Part shown: piece by piece, positions 28,821-49,021 of the stretch
How the letters are laid out: each line of letters begins with the position of its first letter
Position numbering within the stretch: the first letter of the stretch is position 1
Assembly: GCA_027355945.1 (NCBI GenBank)
Contig: DAIEHA010000001.1
Location: 3,390-67,389 of the forward strand
Source: Candidatus Parcubacteria bacterium
Lineage (GTDB): Bacteria; Patescibacteriota; Minisyncoccia; UBA6257; 2-01-FULL-56-20
Length of the DNA stretch: 64,000 nt
Direction of reading: 5' to 3'
Translations under genes and position numbers: made by a program
The notes under the pieces: model-generated
What the model saw: the letters and a program-made list of their open reading frames with translations, nothing else
Told to the model about the DNA's origin: nothing
The model's database searches: none

Positions 28821-28907
28821 ATATACAAAGCGGAAGGGGAGAGATTCGAACTCTCGAGGCCCTTGCGAGCCTGCCGCATTTCGAGTGCGGTGCCTTCGAC
28901 CACTCAG
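28821..28907 (-). tRNA. tRNA-Ser (anticodon CGA), long variable arm, no encoded CCA
   Basis: Reverse strand GGAAGGGTGGCTGAGTGGTCGAAGGCACCGCACTCGAAATGCGGCAGGCTCGCAAGGGCCTCGAGAGTTCGAATCTCTCCCCTTCCG. Anticodon loop CUCGAAA, 7-bp acceptor stem, T-loop TTCGAAT. Confidence 0.85.
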
Positions 28908-28987
28908 CCACCCTTCCGCTTTGTATACGTACGATCCTCTGCGCGATACCCTAATGAGATTAAACGAACCATCCGGGAAATTCAAGA

Positions 28988-29023
28988 ACGGAAAGAAAAG
29001 CGCGCCACAGGGGAGTGGCGCGC
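28988..29023 (-). terminator. Rho-independent terminator for minus-strand gene 29055-29444
   Basis: Perfect stem GCGCGCCAC (loop agggga) GTGGCGCGC, followed on the minus strand by a CTTTTCTTTCC run. Confidence 0.65.
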
Positions 29024-29054
29024 GGTGGGAAAAGGGTAATCCGACGGGTTCCGA

Positions 29055-29444
29055 TCAATGGATATGAGGGGACCCATGGGAAAGGAGCAAGATGTACTTT
29101 TCCGAAGCGCCTCCGCATGCGAGGCATTTCACGCATGTCGTCGCATGTTGCCGGACGACGGCATAGTCGTTGCGGACCTCTGCTGGGGACGGTAGGAAGG
29201 CATTGAACGGATCGGATGCGGCGTGCGTCCGTTCCGCGATGATGAGCTTCCTAAGGGCGGAGAAACTTAGTGTTCCGGCGTAGAACGCACGAACCTTCTC
29301 GAGAAGATTCGCGTCGGCCGTGCATACGAAGGATGATGCGGGTGTCGCAATCGTGCCAGTGGGGGTTTTCATCCTGGGAAAATTGAAGGGAACGAGCATC
29401 CCTTCCCGGACAGCGTAGCGGATATCTGTCATCTTGATCATCAT
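29055..29444 (-). CDS. Hypothetical protein
   Basis: 129 aa ORF with its own downstream terminator; contains CVKCLACGG; no family recognised. Confidence 0.4.
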   Translation of the reverse strand: MMIKMTDIRYAVREGMLVPFNFPRMKTPTGTIATPASSFVCTADANLLEKVRAFYAGTLSFSALRKLIIAERTHAASDPFNAFLPSPAEVRNDYAVVRQHATTCVKCLACGGASEKYILLLSHGSPHIH

Positions 29445-29542
29445 TTTTACCCTGATGGTTGGAATGGCCCGTCGGCCTCGGGAGGCCTGCAGGCGGCTAA
29501 TGAATAGAATACAACATTTTATGAAAAATGCAAAGGTCGCGG

Positions 29543-29614
29543 TGCCCTCGGGAAGAATCGAACTCCCATTTTGCCCTTAGGACGGGCCAGTTCTATCCAT
29601 TGAACTACGAGGGC
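29543..29614 (-). tRNA. tRNA-Arg (anticodon CCT), no encoded CCA
   Basis: Reverse strand GCCCTCGTAGTTCAATGGATAGAACTGGCCCGTCCTAAGGGCAAAATGGGAGTTCGATTCTTCCCGAGGGCA. Cloverleaf with anticodon loop GUCCUAA. Confidence 0.8.
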
Positions 29615-29663
29615 TTTGCCTCTATACTATAGACGGCGCGGAAAGGTATGGCAATCGCGATCC

Positions 29664-29734
29664 GGGCTCATAGTAAAATGGTATTACGCCTCCATGGCAT
29701 GGAGGAGGTCGGGGTTCGATTCCCCGTGGGTCCA
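29664..29734 (+). tRNA. tRNA-Ala (anticodon GGC) with G3:U70 identity pair, no encoded CCA
   Basis: GGGCTCATAGTAAAATGGTATTACGCCTCCATGGCATGGAGGAGGTCGGGGTTCGATTCCCCGTGGGTCCA; anticodon loop AUGGCAU. Confidence 0.85.
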
Positions 29735-29738
29735 CACG

Positions 29739-29825
29739 GGTGGGGTGGCCGAGCGGTTTAAGGCGGCAGTCTTGAAAACTGCTGTACTCGAAAGGGTACC
29801 GTGAGTTCGAATCTCACCCCCACCG
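29739..29825 (+). tRNA. tRNA-Ser (anticodon TGA), long variable arm, no encoded CCA
   Basis: GGTGGGGTGGCCGAGCGGTTTAAGGCGGCAGTCTTGAAAACTGCTGTACTCGAAAGGGTACCGTGAGTTCGAATCTCACCCCCACCG; anticodon loop CUUGAAA. Confidence 0.85.
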
Positions 29826-29918
29826 CAGCAGCGGACAGTACTGCAAGATTTGCATGAAAAGCAGAAAGTGGCTTATGTTCCCGCTCCAGTGCATAGCGCG
29901 GCTTGATGGGCCGCACGA

Positions 29919-30680
29919 TCAAAACCCGAAGAGCAATTTAATCGCAAGGACCCCTCCGATGAATATGAACAGCCATTTGATGAACTTATTCCCTTTGCCT
30001 TTCGCGTATTTTGAACCGATATGCGCGCCCGCCACCGATCCCGCTGCTGCAAGGATCATCATCGGCACGTCATAATATCCTCGCAGGATGAACAGTATTG
30101 CCGCAAAGAGCGCCCACGAGAAGGAAACGAGATAGTAGTGGGCGAGGCCGTCGATGAAATCGAAGCCATTGGTATAGAAGGTGAGTGTGGTGAACAAGAT
30201 GCCATTTCCCGATCCAAATACCGTCTCATAGAATCCGAGGATGAGGGCGAACGGGTACGCGATAGCTTGCCGGGCGCGAGAATACGTATGCCGCTCGCGC
30301 AAACCGAGGTTCTTCTTGAGATACGTATAGGTGACGAGCGCCAGGATGATGATGCCCACGAAGACAGCAAGGGTCCTTTGATCGATGCTCGTCACAAGGA
30401 CGACGCCGAGGTAGGTTCCTATGAGCCCTATGATCGAAAATATGCCGACGAGTTCCCAGCGGACGGTTCTGCCTTTCAGATAATTCCTTGCTGCGGGCAA
30501 TACCCACGCAACGGAATTGACGGAGGAGATCGCCGCGACGAGCGGATACGGGATCCCCATAGAAAGAAGCGCGGGGAAGACGATGATCCCTGCGCCGCCG
30601 CCGGACATCGAGCTCAAAAGCGCTGCAATAAATGCGATGGCGCAAATGAGAAGATCCCTCATAGGCTTATTATAATCCAT
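29919..30680 (-). CDS. TauE/SafE-family (DUF81) membrane transporter
   Basis: Polytopic membrane protein with Gly-rich repeated halves (MSGGGAGIIVFP..., GFYETVFGSGNGILF). Start taken at MDYNKPMRDLL (ATG 30680). Confidence 0.7.
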   Translation of the reverse strand: MDYNKPMRDLLICAIAFIAALLSSMSGGGAGIIVFPALLSMGIPYPLVAAISSVNSVAWVLPAARNYLKGRTVRWELVGIFSIIGLIGTYLGVVLVTSIDQRTLAVFVGIIILALVTYTYLKKNLGLRERHTYSRARQAIAYPFALILGFYETVFGSGNGILFTTLTFYTNGFDFIDGLAHYYLVSFSWALFAAILFILRGYYDVPMMILAAAGSVAGAHIGSKYAKGKGNKFIKWLFIFIGGVLAIKLLFGF

Positions 30681-30839
30681 CTCCACAAAAAACCTTCGAC
30701 CGCGATGCGGCGTCCTATCCGGGGTGAAAAGGGATATTCGTTGCATGCAATGGATCATGACGTCCCGCAGGAAGCCCCCGCGTTTGCATAAGCCTCGTGT
30801 TTTGGGTATATTTTTCTGGACGGTGATATGCCGTGCGGC

Positions 30840-30912
30840 GCCACCTTAGCTCAGCTGGTAGAGCAGTGCTTTCGTAAAGCAAAGGTCCCCGGTTCGAATC
30901 CGGGAGGTGGCT
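30840..30912 (+). tRNA. tRNA-Thr (anticodon CGT), no encoded CCA
   Basis: GCCACCTTAGCTCAGCTGGTAGAGCAGTGCTTTCGTAAAGCAAAGGTCCCCGGTTCGAATCCGGGAGGTGGCT; anticodon loop UUCGUAA. Confidence 0.85.
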
Positions 30913-43226: not shown

Positions 43227-43238
43227 AGGTACAGTATA

Positions 43239-44309
43239 CTACACCGTTGCGGGATCAGAAATTTCCTCGTCGGAGGGATGTTCGGCATCGGTTCCTTCGA
43301 GCATGGCGAAGAGCTTCTCCTGGATGATCTGGGCCTCCGCCGTCCTGCGAAGCGATTGCTCCTCGCGTTCGGGGTGGCGGAGCTTCAGCCGCGCAATGCC
43401 GATCTGGACCTCCCGTTCCGAGGGATCGAGAGCCTCTTTATCCTTGATGGTGCGGATGACGAGGCTCGTTTTGATATCCTCTTCGATGAGCTCGCGCTCC
43501 TCCTTCTCGAGGTCCTCGGCGGTCTTTTTCATCTGTTTCAGATATTCCTCGAGCGAAAGGCCCGCGTCCGCGATCCTCCGATCGCGTTCCTCGATGAAGC
43601 CCTCGAATTCCTGCCTCACAAGCATCTCGGGGACCTTCACTTTCGCTTTCGCAACGATCGCCTTGATCATCGCGTCGCGCGTGCGGTCTTTCGCGATCAT
43701 CTCCTTTTCCCGGGAAAGGTTCTTTGCGATCTCGGCGCGGAATGCGGCCACGTTCTCGAAGGGTCCGAGCTTCTTCACATCGTCATCCGTGAGCGGGGGA
43801 AGTACGTCTCCCTCCTTTGCGGGCGCACCGATGCCGGTCATCTCGCGGATCCTTCCCACAGCCTCGTCGATCTCCTCCTCTTTCACCGAGGCATCTTCCT
43901 TTCGGGAAGCGACCTCTGTCGCGATCTTCTTGTAATCGGGAAGGGAGACCTCCGGTGCGAGCGCATAGCGGATCTTGAATTCGAGGGGCGCCTTCGGAGC
44001 GATCGCGACCACGGTGAGCTCGGGCCGTCCGAGGACGTCGAGCTTCTCATCGTCTGCGATGGCCTGCATGGCATCGCGGAGCGCTTCGTCCGCTGCACCT
44101 TCGAGCAGCCGCACCTCGCCCACGTGTTCGCGCACGAGATGCTGCGGAACTTTGCCTTTGCGGAATCCCGGGAGCGCAAGCTCCTCCGCATAGTGCAAAA
44201 GCTCCTCGATCATGTATTCCTCGAGCGCGTCGGGGGTGATATCGGCTTTGAATTCTACCTCGCCATGCTTTTCCGAGAGTTTTTTAAGATTGGAATATAG
44301 TGTCGCCAT
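43239..44309 (-). CDS. tig: Trigger factor (short form, 356 aa)
   Basis: N-terminal ribosome-binding signature ...ELALPGFRKGKVPQHLV...; no obvious PPIase domain. Confidence 0.7.
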   Translation of the reverse strand: MATLYSNLKKLSEKHGEVEFKADITPDALEEYMIEELLHYAEELALPGFRKGKVPQHLVREHVGEVRLLEGAADEALRDAMQAIADDEKLDVLGRPELTVVAIAPKAPLEFKIRYALAPEVSLPDYKKIATEVASRKEDASVKEEEIDEAVGRIREMTGIGAPAKEGDVLPPLTDDDVKKLGPFENVAAFRAEIAKNLSREKEMIAKDRTRDAMIKAIVAKAKVKVPEMLVRQEFEGFIEERDRRIADAGLSLEEYLKQMKKTAEDLEKEERELIEEDIKTSLVIRTIKDKEALDPSEREVQIGIARLKLRHPEREEQSLRRTAEAQIIQEKLFAMLEGTDAEHPSDEEISDPATV

Positions 44310-46069: not shown

Positions 46070-46260
46070 GTGATTAGTCTACTTGCTTGAGATATACTTC
46101 ACAATATGGAGAGGATCGGGAGGCTTTCCCGGGGGCGGGCATTCCGGGACGAAACAATAGTGAGGGTGGCGTCGTATTACCAACATAAGGATACCCTCGA
46201 AAGAACACGGTCGGTATGATTGTAGTAGACGTGTAGCGGTGCAGGGTATCGTATACCTCT

Positions 46261-46827
46261 ATGGACACACGCGATGAGCGCCGGGATGAGGAAGTGGCGG
46301 CAGACGTGCAAAAAGGGAACGCAGACTCCTTCAGGGTTCTTGTCGATCGCTATGAGCAGAAAATGGTGCGGTATGCGCGCCGCTTCCTCTTTGCGGGCGA
46401 TGAGGCGAAGGACCTCGTGCAAGAGGTGTTCATCAAGGCATACGTGAATATCCGGAGCTTCGACGCCGATCGTCGATTTTCGCCCTGGCTTTACCGCATC
46501 GCGCATAACGAATTCGTGAACGCACTCAAGAAGAAAAAGAAGGAGAGGATGAATATTTCCATATTCGATCTTGATGTCCTCTTTCCTTCGCTTACGCTCA
46601 CTGCACGGGAGACCGCTGACAGCGGTTTCACCAGGCATGAAATGAAGAAGATGCTCGAGGGATCACTCGAGAAGATCCCTGAAAAATACCGCGAACCGCT
46701 CGTGCTGTATTATTTTGACGATATGGATTACAAAGAAATCGCCGATGTGCTCCGTGTTCCGGTGTCGACCGTCGGCGTACGGCTTCAACGAGGGAAAACC
46801 ATGCTGCGAAAGCTCATACCGCAATGA
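46261..46827 (+). CDS. ECF-type sigma-70 family RNA polymerase sigma factor
   Basis: Region 2 (FSPWLYRIAHNEFVNALKK) and region 4 (YREPLVLYYFDDMDYKEIADVLRVPVSTVGVRLQRGK). Confidence 0.85.
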   Translation: MDTRDERRDEEVAADVQKGNADSFRVLVDRYEQKMVRYARRFLFAGDEAKDLVQEVFIKAYVNIRSFDADRRFSPWLYRIAHNEFVNALKKKKKERMNISIFDLDVLFPSLTLTARETADSGFTRHEMKKMLEGSLEKIPEKYREPLVLYYFDDMDYKEIADVLRVPVSTVGVRLQRGKTMLRKLIPQ

Positions 46828-47609
46828 ACGGATCACACGAACCACACGAACCAAAGGAACTCATGCAATCCGCACAATCCGCACATCAGGAGCCGCGTGC
46901 CGAGGGCGTAAGCGGCGATCCGGGCAACAGGGTCCTCGAAGCGATAAAAGAGCGCGAACTTCGCATGCGGCCGCGGCAGTATTTCGTGCTGCGGGCGATC
47001 CTCGTGGCCCTTGGGGCATCCCTCCTCTTCCTGCTGCTTCTGTATGTGGCGAGTTTCGTCATCTATGCGCTCCACATGGATGGATTATGGTTTGCGCCGG
47101 AATACGGCATTTCCGGATGGCTACTGTTCTTCTCCGGGCTTCCCTGGGGATTGCTCCTTCTTTCCCTTGCGATCCTGCTCCTTCTCGCGGTGATCCTGAG
47201 GAATTATGAATTCGTCTATCATCAGCCGCTCTTCTATCCTTTGTTCGCGTTCGTGGTGCTCATCGCGATCGGAGGATTTTTCCTGGGGACGACCGCGCTC
47301 CATCCCGATCTTTCCCGTTTTGCGGCAAGGAACGCGCCGGTGCTCGAGAATTTCTATGAATACGAGACCGCGTTCCCCTCGAGCGTCCATCGGGGCGTGA
47401 TCGTGTCCTTGGGCAATGGGACGTTCATCATCGCGGATGGTTTCGGCGTAACATCGAGCATCGTGGGAGGACCCGTACAGGGATTCCAAGTGGGCGATGT
47501 GGTGCTCGTGTTCGGCATGCGCCGGGACGACGGCGTGATCAAGGCGTTTGGCGTGCAGCAGATGGGCATGGCGACCTCAACGATCGTGCCTACGGGGACG
47601 ATGCAGTGA
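46824..47609 (+). CDS. Putative anti-sigma factor / membrane protein co-transcribed with ECF sigma
   Basis: Start overlaps the sigma-factor stop (ATGA). Cytoplasmic N-terminus, 4 predicted TM helices, and a C-terminal extracytoplasmic domain. Confidence 0.5.
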   Translation: MNGSHEPHEPKELMQSAQSAHQEPRAEGVSGDPGNRVLEAIKERELRMRPRQYFVLRAILVALGASLLFLLLLYVASFVIYALHMDGLWFAPEYGISGWLLFFSGLPWGLLLLSLAILLLLAVILRNYEFVYHQPLFYPLFAFVVLIAIGGFFLGTTALHPDLSRFAARNAPVLENFYEYETAFPSSVHRGVIVSLGNGTFIIADGFGVTSSIVGGPVQGFQVGDVVLVFGMRRDDGVIKAFGVQQMGMATSTIVPTGTMQ

Positions 47610-47736
47610 AAGAAACATTGCGCCGGTATGTAGTAATGGATGTCCGGCGCCATGGAGCCGGACCCCATAAGGGGGAAAGGTCGCAAATCAAAAATGAGAA
47701 AGAACAATATGGTTTATTTTAGGGGGAGCGGCGGAT

Positions 47737-47795
47737 ACCGCGCGCGTTTCCGGGAGACAGGGGAGACCCGGAACGCATAGAGACGGACGCGCGGT
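47737..47795. other. Y-shaped nested hairpin element within 470-nt non-coding region (candidate structured RNA / riboswitch-like)
   Basis: ACCGCGCG (47737-44) pairs with CGCGCGGT (47788-95), enclosing CCGGG (47750-54)...CCCGG (47767-71). Further hairpins lie at 47642-47663 (GTCCGGC/GCCGGAC) and 47950-47985 (AAACCCTCCCTCG/CGAGCGGAGGGTTT). Confidence 0.25.
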
Positions 47796-48012
47796 CGCGT
47801 GATGCTCATCGGGCTGCCCCGGTCCATCGGACGCAGGGAATAAGGGGAATTCCTTGCAGAGAGAAAGACCAAATACGGGCAGGAGCACGCGAACGCCGTT
47901 CCTCCTCCGCACTATATAACAACCGACATAATCATCTCATACTCATAGTAAACCCTCCCTCGTCTTCGACCCGAGCGGAGGGTTTGCTATATGCAGGAGA
48001 ATGGCGGGGCCA

Positions 48013-48041
48013 TTGACCCATGTTCCGATCGCCGTTACATT
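48013..48041 (+). promoter_or_regulatory. Putative sigma70 promoter TTGACC-N17-TACATT for small gene 48082-48354
   Basis: -35 box at 48013-18, -10 at 48036-41, SD AGGAGG at 48067-72, ATG at 48082. Confidence 0.5.
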
Positions 48042-48081
48042 AAAATGCAGCCGCATCGTCGTTTGAAGGAGGAAGATTCCA

Positions 48082-48354
48082 ATGGCCGCAGCCGTAGTGC
48101 GCACCGCGGGGATTTCCGGATGTGCATGGCTCAAGGAGATCGCAGACGAAGAATTGTACTGCCTTCTCACGGGGACCTTTTCAAAGGAAAAGGCCGCCGT
48201 ACTCGTCCATGCCGTAAGCGGGTTTCCCGGATGCGTTTCATGCGCGGAACGCATCGCATTCGCCATGAGGATGGGAGAACGGTATTTCACCCTGGAGGAA
48301 CGGATGGGATTTCGTGTTGCCGCGCTCGGAAAGATAGCGGGGTATGGGATATGA
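48082..48354 (+). CDS. Small 4-Cys hypothetical protein
   Basis: 90 aa ORF with a strong SD, its own promoter and its own terminator. Cysteines at CAWLKE...YCLL...PGCVSCAER. Confidence 0.55.
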   Translation: MAAAVVRTAGISGCAWLKEIADEELYCLLTGTFSKEKAAVLVHAVSGFPGCVSCAERIAFAMRMGERYFTLEERMGFRVAALGKIAGYGI

Positions 48355-48363
48355 GACTATCGT

Positions 48364-48396
48364 GCACGCAGCCGGTCCCGGCAGCGTGCTTTTTTT
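48364..48396 (+). terminator. Rho-independent terminator
   Basis: GCACGCAGCCGG tc CCGGCAGCGTGC followed by TTTTTTT. Confidence 0.75.
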
Positions 48397-48415
48397 ATCG
48401 TCTTCATCCCGGACG

Positions 48416-49021
48416 CTATGAGCGCCGTTCAAGGGATGCGCCGAGGGTCTCATCATCGGAGAACTCTATCTCCCCGCCGGTGGGAAGACCTCGTCCGAGC
48501 CGGCTTATGCGCTTTGCGAGAGGGGTGAGCTCTTTCATGAGAAGCGATGCCTGGAAATCCCCGAGCGATGTGGGATTGAATGCGAGGATTATCTCGTCCG
48601 CCTGTCCTCCGAGGTCCTCCTTCACGGATCTCGCGAGTGCCGCAAGACGCGTTCTCTGCCATGGCTCGAGGAATCCCGTCTTGGGGACCTGGCCGATGAT
48701 GAAATAGCGGCCGGTATATTTTTTCGTGTTCTCGAGCGACAGAAGGTCCGTTTCCTTTTCGACGGCCATGATGGTCTTTGCGTTCCGCGCCGGATTGGCG
48801 CAGATATCGCAGAGATCGCCCTCGTTCTGATGGATGAAATAGCAGCGCGTGCAGACCTTCATCTTCGCGAGCCCTTCGATGGCTCCGCCGAGGTTGCGCA
48901 GACGATCCGGACCTTCGTTGATGAGATGGAACGCCAGACGTATCGCCTGGCGTGGTCCGATCGAGGGGAGTTCGGAAAGTTCGTCGACCACTTTCTGTAT
49001 GGGATCGGGAAGCCTCATCAT
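48416..49021 (-). CDS. recR: Recombination protein RecR
   Basis: MMRLPDPIQKVVDELSELPSIGPRQAIRLAFHL..., a C4 zinc finger (CTRCYFIHQNEGDLCDIC), and a Toprim domain. Confidence 0.9.
   Translation of the reverse strand: MMRLPDPIQKVVDELSELPSIGPRQAIRLAFHLINEGPDRLRNLGGAIEGLAKMKVCTRCYFIHQNEGDLCDICANPARNAKTIMAVEKETDLLSLENTKKYTGRYFIIGQVPKTGFLEPWQRTRLAALARSVKEDLGGQADEIILAFNPTSLGDFQASLLMKELTPLAKRISRLGRGLPTGGEIEFSDDETLGASLERRS

Follow-up and report, generated by a model that had tools for sequence, protein, structure and literature searches.

Genomic context

In a 64,000-nt stretch of DNA from a Candidatus Parcubacteria bacterium (contig DAIEHA010000001.1; the whole stretch is here called the window), an intergenic interval of ~470 nt lies between the gene of a 261-aa membrane protein and a 90-aa open reading frame (ORF). 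The interval contains a predicted structured RNA preceded by a motif that resembles the promoters of sigma factors with extracytoplasmic function (ECF), and the same motif is placed before the ECF sigma factor gene of the adjoining operon. On its best reading from sequence comparison, the RNA represents a new, previously uncatalogued family in the Candidate Phyla Radiation (CPR)/Patescibacteria, of Parcubacteria/Paceibacterota type, and would belong to the ECF-sigma-dependent regulatory kind. The features of the locus are the following.

46151 to 46179, + strand: ECF-type promoter-like motif before the sigma gene, copy 1, GAAACAATAGTGAGGGTGGCGTCGTATTA, found by regular-expression scan (GAAAC...CGTATTA variant)
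46199 to 46227, + strand: ECF-type promoter-like motif before the sigma gene, copy 2, GAAAGAACACGGTCGGTATGATTGTAGTA (GAAAG...TGTA form, as before the RNA)
46261 to 46827, + strand: ECF (group IV) sigma factor gene, 188 aa, with Pfam Sigma70_r2 and r4_2
46824 to 47609, + strand: multi-pass membrane protein, 261 aa, putative anti-sigma factor; its start overlaps the sigma stop and its stop codon TGA overlaps the RNA promoter motif
47608 to 47635, + strand: ECF-type promoter-like motif of the RNA gene, GAAAGAAACATTGCGCCGGTATGTAGTA (-35-like TGAAAG, -10-like TGTAGTA)
47610 to 48081: intergenic interval, ~470 nt, between the 261-aa membrane-protein gene and the 90-aa ORF, both on the + strand
47641 to 47993, + strand: predicted RNA, ~350 nt, with ends placed by the promoter motif and the terminal hairpin
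48082 to 48354, + strand: 90-aa cysteine-containing ORF, with no Pfam or NCBIfam match

The sigma protein scores 106.9 bits against the NCBIfam model TIGR02937 (sigma70-ECF), for which the cut-off is 42.9. Its top named NCBIfam match is SigW (E 2e-42), with 145 bits that fall under the 209-bit equivalog cut-off, and by sequence the sigma factor is SigW-like, not SigW. The membrane protein has no family match in Pfam or NCBIfam and only 15 homologues among 5.8 billion clusters. In all the homologues with retrieved contigs (8/8), the order sigma factor, membrane protein and RNA is maintained. We infer an anti-sigma role from its position, from the overlap with the ECF sigma gene and from its transmembrane character and topology; the assignment is positional because no family match is available. 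If it is a true anti-sigma factor, the protein would belong to an undescribed class that lacks the zinc-binding HxxxCxxC motif.

A promoter-like motif common to the RNA and the sigma operon

The motif GAAA(G/T)AAA-N14-(G/T)GTAnTA precedes the RNA in 37/37 distinct members of the family, with a span of 28 nt in 36 of them and of 29 nt in one, and its consensus is agTGAAAgAAAg-N-ggTGTAgTAAt. The membrane-protein stop codon begins with the T that precedes GAAA. All distinct loci that reach far enough upstream (21/21) also have the motif immediately ahead of the sigma ORF and in the same orientation. This second copy is located 1.2-1.6 kb upstream of the RNA promoter and has the consensus tGAAA(T/G)AAAtc-N-tGTAnTA. 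In the 64-kb window, matches comprise only the RNA site, the two sigma-upstream sites and two loose ones (-43265 and -16628). Over 303 kb, scanned on both strands, few others occur: a handful at a recurring position within the sigma/membrane-protein coding region, the site upstream of a short-chain dehydrogenase/reductase (SDR) gene and two isolated matches. The motif is unlike the sigma-70-type sites that precede the 90-aa ORF (TTGACC-17-TACATT) and, elsewhere, the helicase genes. Because it is common to the RNA and the sigma gene, rare elsewhere and unlike these sigma-70-type sites, it is read as the probable cognate promoter of this ECF sigma factor.

Autoregulation is typical of ECF sigma operons. 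The autoregulatory sigW promoter class of Bacillus subtilis combines tgaAAC with a CGTA -10 element (PMC5758882). The motif described here resembles this class in the -35-like TGAAA(C/G/T), the -10-like (C/T/G)GTA and the ECF-like spacing, as well as in its position before the operon of the sigma gene itself, which is the hallmark of autoregulation. It differs in that the -35-like element of the RNA promoter ends in G or T, not C, and in that the -10-like element is extended to TGTAgTAAt.

In the window, the two sites before the sigma gene are placed in tandem (46151-46179, with the canonical ECF arrangement GAAAC...CGTA, and 46199-46227), and some lineages have only one of the pair. The copy-1 motif is also present in the homologous loci L003, L015, L017, L038 and L068. 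A further copy, GAAATTTCTGATCCCGCAACGGTGTAGTA then tactgtacctATG, is located on the - strand at 43237-43265, at the end of a trigger-factor gene and just before the SDR/adh_short gene. This SDR-upstream site (-43265) is kept in L003 (- strand, 433) and may mark another member of the sigma regulon. In L067, the -35-like element is degenerate (TAATAAAG), and short direct and inverted repeats (GGGATTT.../...AAATCCC, TTATTTGGGATTT) occupy, ~150-330 nt upstream of the RNA, the place of the usual membrane-protein gene end.

Distribution and conservation of the family

Relatives were collected from the contigs of membrane-protein homologues, compared by blastn, and from pattern scans for the hairpin core combined with synteny. 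After de-duplication the family has 37 distinct members, which adjoin the downstream end of the ECF sigma/membrane-protein operon in CPR (Parcubacteria/Paceibacterota) genomes and metagenomes. Identical or related contigs come from Candidatus Parcubacteria, Paceibacterota and Minisyncoccia metagenome-assembled genomes (MAGs) and from metagenomes of peat and soil. Across 185,579 species-representative genomes, the hairpin-core pattern gave 14 true matches, all in CPR or unclassified MAGs and 12 of them with the sigma/membrane-protein genes directly upstream, together with 17 chance matches in GC-rich coding DNA. A metagenome collection provided 25 further matches, and viral contigs gave none.

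By blastn, L003 (85%) and L006 (70%) retain the interval over its full length, and blocks of it are conserved in every other syntenic locus. One block, of ~45-80 nt around the third hairpin, is 88-97% identical in every syntenic locus, including those in which the neighbouring protein is 45-59% identical. The hairpin is single-copy in the window and occurs once per locus. A covariance model built from 7 short (minimal) forms finds each true locus with one significant match (E <= 0.001), and 6 chance-match loci give none. The constant neighbour of the RNA is the sigma/membrane-protein operon, not recR.

Architecture of the predicted RNA

The estimated length of the members ranges from ~122 to ~361 nt, with a median of 173; minimal forms have ~125-140 nt and long forms, such as that of the window, 310-360 nt. 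Each relative contains four conserved parts: the promoter-like motif, an AAAGGYC block, a variable central domain and a near-invariant terminal hairpin. In the window these parts and their helices are placed as follows, all on the + strand.

47642 to 47663, + strand: P1, optional 5' hairpin GTCCGGC-GCCATGGA-GCCGGAC; a CCGG...CCGG hairpin is present in 19/36 members
47676 to 47684, + strand: invariant single-stranded block AAAGGTCGC, family consensus AAAGGYC, present in every member
47721 to 47731, + strand: long-range helix closing the central domain, 5' strand AGGGGGAGCGG, paired with 47896-47906 (RNAalifold, 8 long forms)
47737 to 47795, + strand: Y-shaped element, a lineage-specific insertion confined to the window, L003 and L006, gapped in the five other long forms
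47814 to 47821, + strand: internal helix, 5' strand CTGCCCCG, paired with CGGGCAG at 47876-47882, also in the minimum free energy (MFE) fold
47833 to 47857, + strand: hairpin GCAGGGAAT-AAGGGGAA-TTCCTTGC, whose AAGGGGAA loop is invariant in 8/8 long forms
47876 to 47882, + strand: internal helix, 3' strand CGGGCAG, from the alignment and the MFE fold
47896 to 47906, + strand: long-range helix, 3' strand CCGTTCCTCCT, alignment columns 335-345
47934 to 47948, + strand: conserved block ATCTCATACTCATAG, identical in 8/8 long forms; other sub-families have ATCATGCATAAATAG
47945 to 47990, + strand: P3, terminal hairpin ATAGTAAACCCTCC-CTCG-[TCTTCGACC]-CGAG-C-GGAGGGTTTGCTAT, with the loop at 47963-47971 and a U-rich tail

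An earlier note on this DNA had described three structures in the interval, and all three are present at the positions that it gave. The inverted-repeat scan recovers the first hairpin, GTCCGGC/GCCGGAC, at 47642-47663 (P1 in the list above). The arms of the Y-shaped element, ACCGCGCG/CGCGCGGT, are found at 47737-47744/47788-47795 and enclose TTCCGGG/CCCGGAA. The third hairpin, AAACCCTCCCTCG...CGAGCGGAGGGTTT, is P3, and its arms extend further, to 24 nt (47935-47958/47977-48000). Equal weight had been given to the three structures, of which only the last is a hallmark of the family; the first is optional and the Y-shaped element is a restricted insertion.

P1 carries no covariation signal because its stem is palindromic. 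The AAAGGYC block is conserved at the nucleotide level, since the reading frames across it differ between members or no ORF covers it. Between this block and the central domain there is an A-rich stretch that ends in UAUG. The central domain of the long forms is closed by the long-range helix, in which compensatory changes include C-G to U-A. The internal helix has the equivalents CUGCGG/CCGCAG in L009, L059, L062 and L067 and CUGUGA/UCACGG in L014, the latter with two compensatory changes, as read from the alignment. The stem below the AAGGGGAA loop also covaries (GGGAAU/AUUCC, GGAGG/CCUCC, GGGG/CCCC; columns 266-286). Within the Y-shaped element, the inner hairpin TTCCGGG-AGACAGGGGAGA-CCCGGAA, with its loop AGGGGA, is kept in the window, L003 and L006; by eye, the outer stem covaries with L006 (CGTCA/TGACG) and is lost in L003. 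In the minimal forms, the central domain consists of a single CCGCC-NNNG-GGCGG hairpin, and the variants UCGCC/GGCGA and UUGCC/GGCAA show covariation.

The block at 47934-47948 takes the form AUCUCAUACUCAUAG or AUCAUGCAUAAAUAG in the family, and its counterpart is invariant among the short forms. The CAUA that it contains pairs with the conserved UAUG on the 5' side of the central domain. P3, a stable hairpin of ~18 bp, precedes a U tract that is short and interrupted, and the scan marks part of the hairpin as terminator-like. Across 35 distinct sequences the loop UUCGACC and the inner stem of P3 do not vary; its outer stem covaries (ATAG/CTAT, ACCG/CGGT, AGCAA/TTGCT). P3 is probably a terminator and stability element.

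Several lineages with short forms (L047 7306-7423; L074 645-730; L039, L046, L050, L056, L065, L072) have a second long hairpin, of 70-120 nt, directly after P3. Its interior is conserved in two versions, and it is not present in the window. The second hairpin and P3 are mutually exclusive because the former re-uses the 3' arm of P3 (GGGTTGCTGTTTAT ... ATAAACAGCAACCC). As a known RNA of the signal recognition particle (SRP) kind it was rejected, with no Rfam match.

Two further pairings were considered and set aside. A pseudoknot of AAAGGUCG with CGACC of the P3 loop is possible with 4-5 bp in most members and is broken without compensation in L007 and L017 (GGCC); the P3 loop never varies. 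A 5' stem enclosing AAAGGUC (GAU/AUC vs GGU/ACC; GCGA/UCGC vs AUGA/UCAU) appears in single-sequence folds in an inconsistent register.

Folding stability, covariation and strand

The interval 47610-48081 is more stable than its dinucleotide shuffles on both strands, with z = -3.3 (+) and -3.6 (-), and 0/100 shuffles fold as well. The predicted transcript (47641-47993) has an MFE of -141.9 kcal/mol and z = -5.4. In a MAFFT alignment of the 8 long forms, RNAalifold predicts 38 pairs, of which 13 show two-sided changes. In a covariance-model alignment of 35 distinct rows, 97.4% of the cells are paired, compared with 33-52% when the partners are slid by 1-3 columns, the first figure being optimistic because the alignment was fitted to the model. 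Two-sided changes occur in 8 pairs of the same alignment, against 2.2 +/- 1.0 in shuffles (0/500). The slid controls and the independent MAFFT/RNAalifold result agree with it in direction. The count of 16 G·U vs 3 A·C cells favours the + strand.

Coding potential and known RNA classes

The interval had been described as free of any ORF above 60 aa. This is not strictly so: the - strand carries a 74-aa GTG ORF inside it (47688-47912), and three ORFs of greater length extend across its edges. None of the four shows a Pfam match or conservation, and Pfam gives no match for any ORF in the interval. No ORF or frame is conserved across the AAAGGYC block, where 14/37 members have no ATG ORF. A small protein or leaderless peptide was rejected: similar 20-aa peptides (MSSKGHK..., MSGKGRK...) occur in some short forms only, and in others the reading frame ends after 3-4 codons, an ATG is missing, or the invariant block is crossed in a different frame.

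The translated searches covered the ORFs of the fetched loci, the helicase and Pfam, and no broad public protein database. In the local blastx against six-frame ORFs of the fetched loci, the matches listed include only interval-derived ORFs of L001-L005/L021. With the DEAD-box helicase as query, tblastn finds no remnant in the interval and detects no copy in the 64-kb window. A pseudogene of the helicase or of another gene has thus no translated similarity in its favour (local blastx, helicase tblastn, Pfam), and the degraded pseudogene that the earlier note had named as the result that would speak against it finds no support in local blastx or Pfam.

The comparison with Rfam 15 gives nothing in the interval at gathering thresholds (5 tRNAs elsewhere in the window only) and no match for 47400-48500 at E <= 10; the Rfam check that had been proposed thus assigns the interval to no family. 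For ten homologous loci it yields only sub-threshold noise of the miRNA-hairpin type. ARAGORN detects no tRNA or tmRNA in 47000-48600. The weak resemblances to RNase P, tmRNA and SRP RNA that had been pointed out are not real, with no match in Rfam or ARAGORN; these classes and 6S RNA were rejected on the same searches and on the lack of pairing between the 5' and 3' termini. By eye, AAAGGUCGC differs from the CR-I sequence of RNase P. A repeat, mobile or phage element was also discarded, the element being single-copy and having no viral match.

Genes downstream of the RNA

The gene that follows the RNA changes from lineage to lineage. The 90-aa ORF is downstream in the window and in L003, where it is kept at 75% identity together with its sigma-70-like promoter. 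Unrelated ORFs of 118-123 aa (118-125 aa across other lineages) take this place in loci such as L009 and L014. In many lineages the next co-oriented gene is that of a DEAD-box helicase with its own promoter.

L026 2446-3885; L039 3704-5107; L050 6335-7759; L015 4913-6286; others: DEAD-box RNA helicase gene, after the RNA and co-oriented with it

The helicase genes have a conserved promoter-like sequence, TTATGGTTAGCGCA(C/T)ATG, right at the start codon. Because of its position, this sequence suggests that the leader of the helicase mRNA is very short or absent.

In L006, L007, L012, L017, L038 and L044 there is no co-oriented gene, and a convergent recR is placed directly after P3. Since the co-oriented downstream gene varies or a convergent recR follows, the RNA is very probably not a leader or a riboswitch. 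This agrees with the view of the earlier note that the region is not simply the leader of the cysteine-protein gene. The separate promoter that it had assigned to the small gene is found by scan at 48013-48041, as the sigma-70-like TTGACC-17-TACATT, and is also kept in the 89% relative L003. A riboswitch or leader was rejected on two grounds: there is no constant, related downstream gene, and no known aptamer family of Rfam matches. Of the two possibilities offered before, a structured non-coding RNA (ncRNA) or a riboswitch, the former stands on the conserved family, the covarying helices, the promoter-like motif of its own and the lack of coding potential, and the latter is unsupported in view of the variable downstream gene and the lack of an Rfam match.

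A textbook intrinsic terminator, GCACGCAGCCGG-TCC-CGGCAGCGTGC then T7, is located at 48364-48396, in the gap that separates the 90-aa ORF from the convergent recR. The consensus scan did not include it. It shows that canonical terminators are in use in this genome, in contrast to the weak U tract of P3.

Proposed function and alternative explanations

The family is conserved, modular and non-coding; its helices covary, its members have a promoter motif in common, and it is independent of any particular downstream gene. That a conserved, structured RNA gene with this promoter exists is regarded as highly probable. The RNA is probably regulatory and switched on by the stress sigma factor, since its promoter matches that of the sigma/anti-sigma operon. 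In the proposed mechanism, a stress signal would inactivate the putative anti-sigma membrane protein (46824-47609) and the SigW-like ECF sigma factor (46261-46827) would be set free. The freed sigma factor would then transcribe its own operon from the TGAAA(G/C)...(T/C)GTAnTA promoters at 46151 and 46199 and would likewise use the matching promoter at 47608-47635, overlapping the membrane-protein stop codon, for the RNA gene. The transcript would end and be stabilized at P3 (47945-47990), where read-through from the operon would end too, since no terminator separates the stop codon from the RNA. Acting in trans, the RNA would be the post-transcriptional arm of the sigma regulon, and its acting segments could be the conserved, exposed AAAGGUCGC and AUCUCAUACUCAUAG and the UUCGACC and AAGGGGAA loops. 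The complete model of an ECF-sigma-dependent regulatory RNA, with its action in trans, is held with less assurance than the existence of the gene and is considered reasonably probable.

Several points weigh against this model. Transcription, sigma dependence, the exact ends, termination at P3, the action in trans and the targets are inferred. The -35-like element of the RNA promoter is GAAAG/GAAAT, and the canonical ECF element is GAAAC. Termination at P3 is not assured because its U tract (UUUGCUAUAU) is short and interrupted, in contrast to the terminator at 48364-48396. No convincing complementary target is apparent, the translation-initiation regions of the window offering only 8-9-mers at chance level; the analysis covers 64 kb of the genome. 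A simple base-pairing small RNA (sRNA) would not usually have a covarying central domain of ~200 nt whose loops are invariant, which hints at binding of protein or at a tertiary fold. To these points are added the fitting of the 35-row alignment to its model and the origin of most sequences in a few related peat and soil metagenomes, so that there are fewer independent events than sequences. A feedback pairing with the sigma mRNA leader was also tried and rejected: the RNAduplex duplexes are long and non-specific, and a 9-bp match of the window is uncompensated in L006.

The same gene, promoter and ends would also fit a structured RNA that acts by protein binding or tertiary folding instead of base-pairing, for instance by serving an RNA-binding protein, the frequently adjacent DEAD-box helicase or part of the sigma/anti-sigma module as a decoy or scaffold. 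The central domain is complex and covarying; three loops are invariant, namely AAGGGGAA, AGGGGA and the T-loop-like UUCGA in P3; and the conservation of the P3 loop and inner stem in the 35 distinct sequences goes beyond the needs of a terminator. No target complementarity was found, and the helicase is the next gene in many lineages. On the other hand, no candidate for the partner protein emerges, the helicase is missing at this position in the lineage of the window and was not found in its 64 kb, and the large central domain is dispensable, because the minimal forms (~125-140 nt) lack it and its AAGGGGAA loop. This explanation is a minority possibility, and a CPR-specific modular RNA dedicated to the sigma/anti-sigma module or to the DEAD-box helicase, as a partner that binds protein or RNA polymerase, is similarly tentative. 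Rather improbable is a cis-acting 3' untranslated region (UTR) of the sigma/anti-sigma operon, in which P3 would be a (bidirectional) terminator and 3'-end protection, the upstream structures would tune mRNA stability and the promoter-like motif would have arisen incidentally or act as a minor promoter within the operon. It would account for the place of the element, always directly after the operon with no terminator between, for the terminator-like part of P3 and for the position of P3 between convergent genes in L006, L007, L012 and L017. However, a motif with a 28-nt span in 36/37 members that matches that of the sigma gene is hard to call incidental. The P3 loop and inner stem are also invariant where the neighbouring protein is 35-45% identical, although terminator stems and loops normally drift, and neither the AAAGGYC block nor the covarying internal helices are necessary for termination.

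Much less probable still is a riboswitch or cis-regulatory 5' leader of the co-oriented gene, that of the 90-aa cysteine protein here and of the DEAD-box helicase elsewhere. Such a gene does follow the RNA in many lineages, and the second hairpin of the main group competes with the 3' arm of P3 in the manner of a terminator and antiterminator. But the downstream genes are unrelated among lineages, conserved sigma-70-like promoters of their own stand in the stretch from P3 to the start codon, six loci have the convergent recR next (L006, L007, L012, L017, L038, L044), and no Rfam riboswitch matches. A lack of function, with chance hairpins in a GC-rich spacer or the remnant of a degraded gene, is hardly credible. 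In its favour, folding over the complete interval is about as good on one strand as on the other, and mechanical ORFs are present in it; against this, the block-wise conservation is above that of the flanking genes, the helices covary, local blastx, helicase tblastn and Pfam give no support for a gene remnant, and the element is single-copy. The ECF-sigma-dependent regulatory RNA is thus the preferred explanation.

Relation to known systems and significance

RybB, MicA and MicL of Escherichia coli and Salmonella are trans-acting sRNAs that depend on the ECF sigma factor sigma-E. An ECF-sigma-dependent sRNA, FoxJ, serves as a comparison case from Fusobacterium nucleatum (PMC11005410). The RNA described here resembles the four in being a predicted ncRNA gene behind a promoter-like motif of the envelope-stress ECF type, with a stable terminal hairpin and no ORF, and in being the presumed post-transcriptional arm of a regulon. 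As in MicL, the promoter is located at or inside the end of the upstream coding sequence. It differs from the four in having no sequence or Rfam relationship to them, in its physical linkage, in all members, to the 3' end of the sigma/anti-sigma operon, in its occurrence in CPR bacteria, and in its make-up: it is 120-360 nt long and has, in place of a short 5' seed, invariant loops and a central domain that is modular and covarying.

MicL and DapZ are type I 3'-UTR sRNAs, which have their own internal promoter. The predicted RNA is similar to them in that its promoter overlaps the end of the upstream ORF and its putative terminator would be common with the upstream operon. With a shared terminator, both primary and read-through-derived transcripts would be possible. 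Unlike in these sRNAs, the body of the RNA is wholly downstream of the stop codon. OLE, ROOL, GOLLD and raiA are large structured bacterial ncRNAs of unknown function, all of them Rfam families. The long forms (310-360 nt) are comparable to these in their several covarying helices, invariant loops and restriction to a lineage, and they are distinguished by the lack of an Rfam match, the dispensable big domain and the specific promoter class and gene linkage. Finally, P3 resembles intrinsic bidirectional terminators in its GC-rich stem, 5' A-tract, 3' U-tract and frequent position between convergent genes. It differs from them in a loop and inner stem that are invariant across distant lineages and in a U tract that is short and interrupted.

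The CPR/Patescibacteria make up a large share of the bacterial tree, most of it uncultured; their genomes are tiny and encode very few recognizable regulators. In the literature searched, no regulatory RNA was found described for CPR bacteria. The locus presents a three-part module of an ECF sigma factor, a candidate membrane anti-sigma factor and a promoter-matched RNA, across many Parcubacteria/Paceibacterota lineages. It also defines a probable promoter consensus of the sigma factor, with which the sigma regulon could be traced using nothing but MAGs. Should the RNA be a true base-pairing regulator, the rule of an envelope-stress sigma factor accompanied by an sRNA would reach a very distant phylum. 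If it is a true protein-binding structured RNA, it would constitute a new class of functional RNA wired into the sigma-factor signalling of ultra-small bacteria.

Other features of the window

Beyond the 90-aa ORF, recR and then dnaB are located on the - strand. Five tRNA genes, identified by their Rfam tRNA matches, are clustered on both strands at 28831-30912 of the window.

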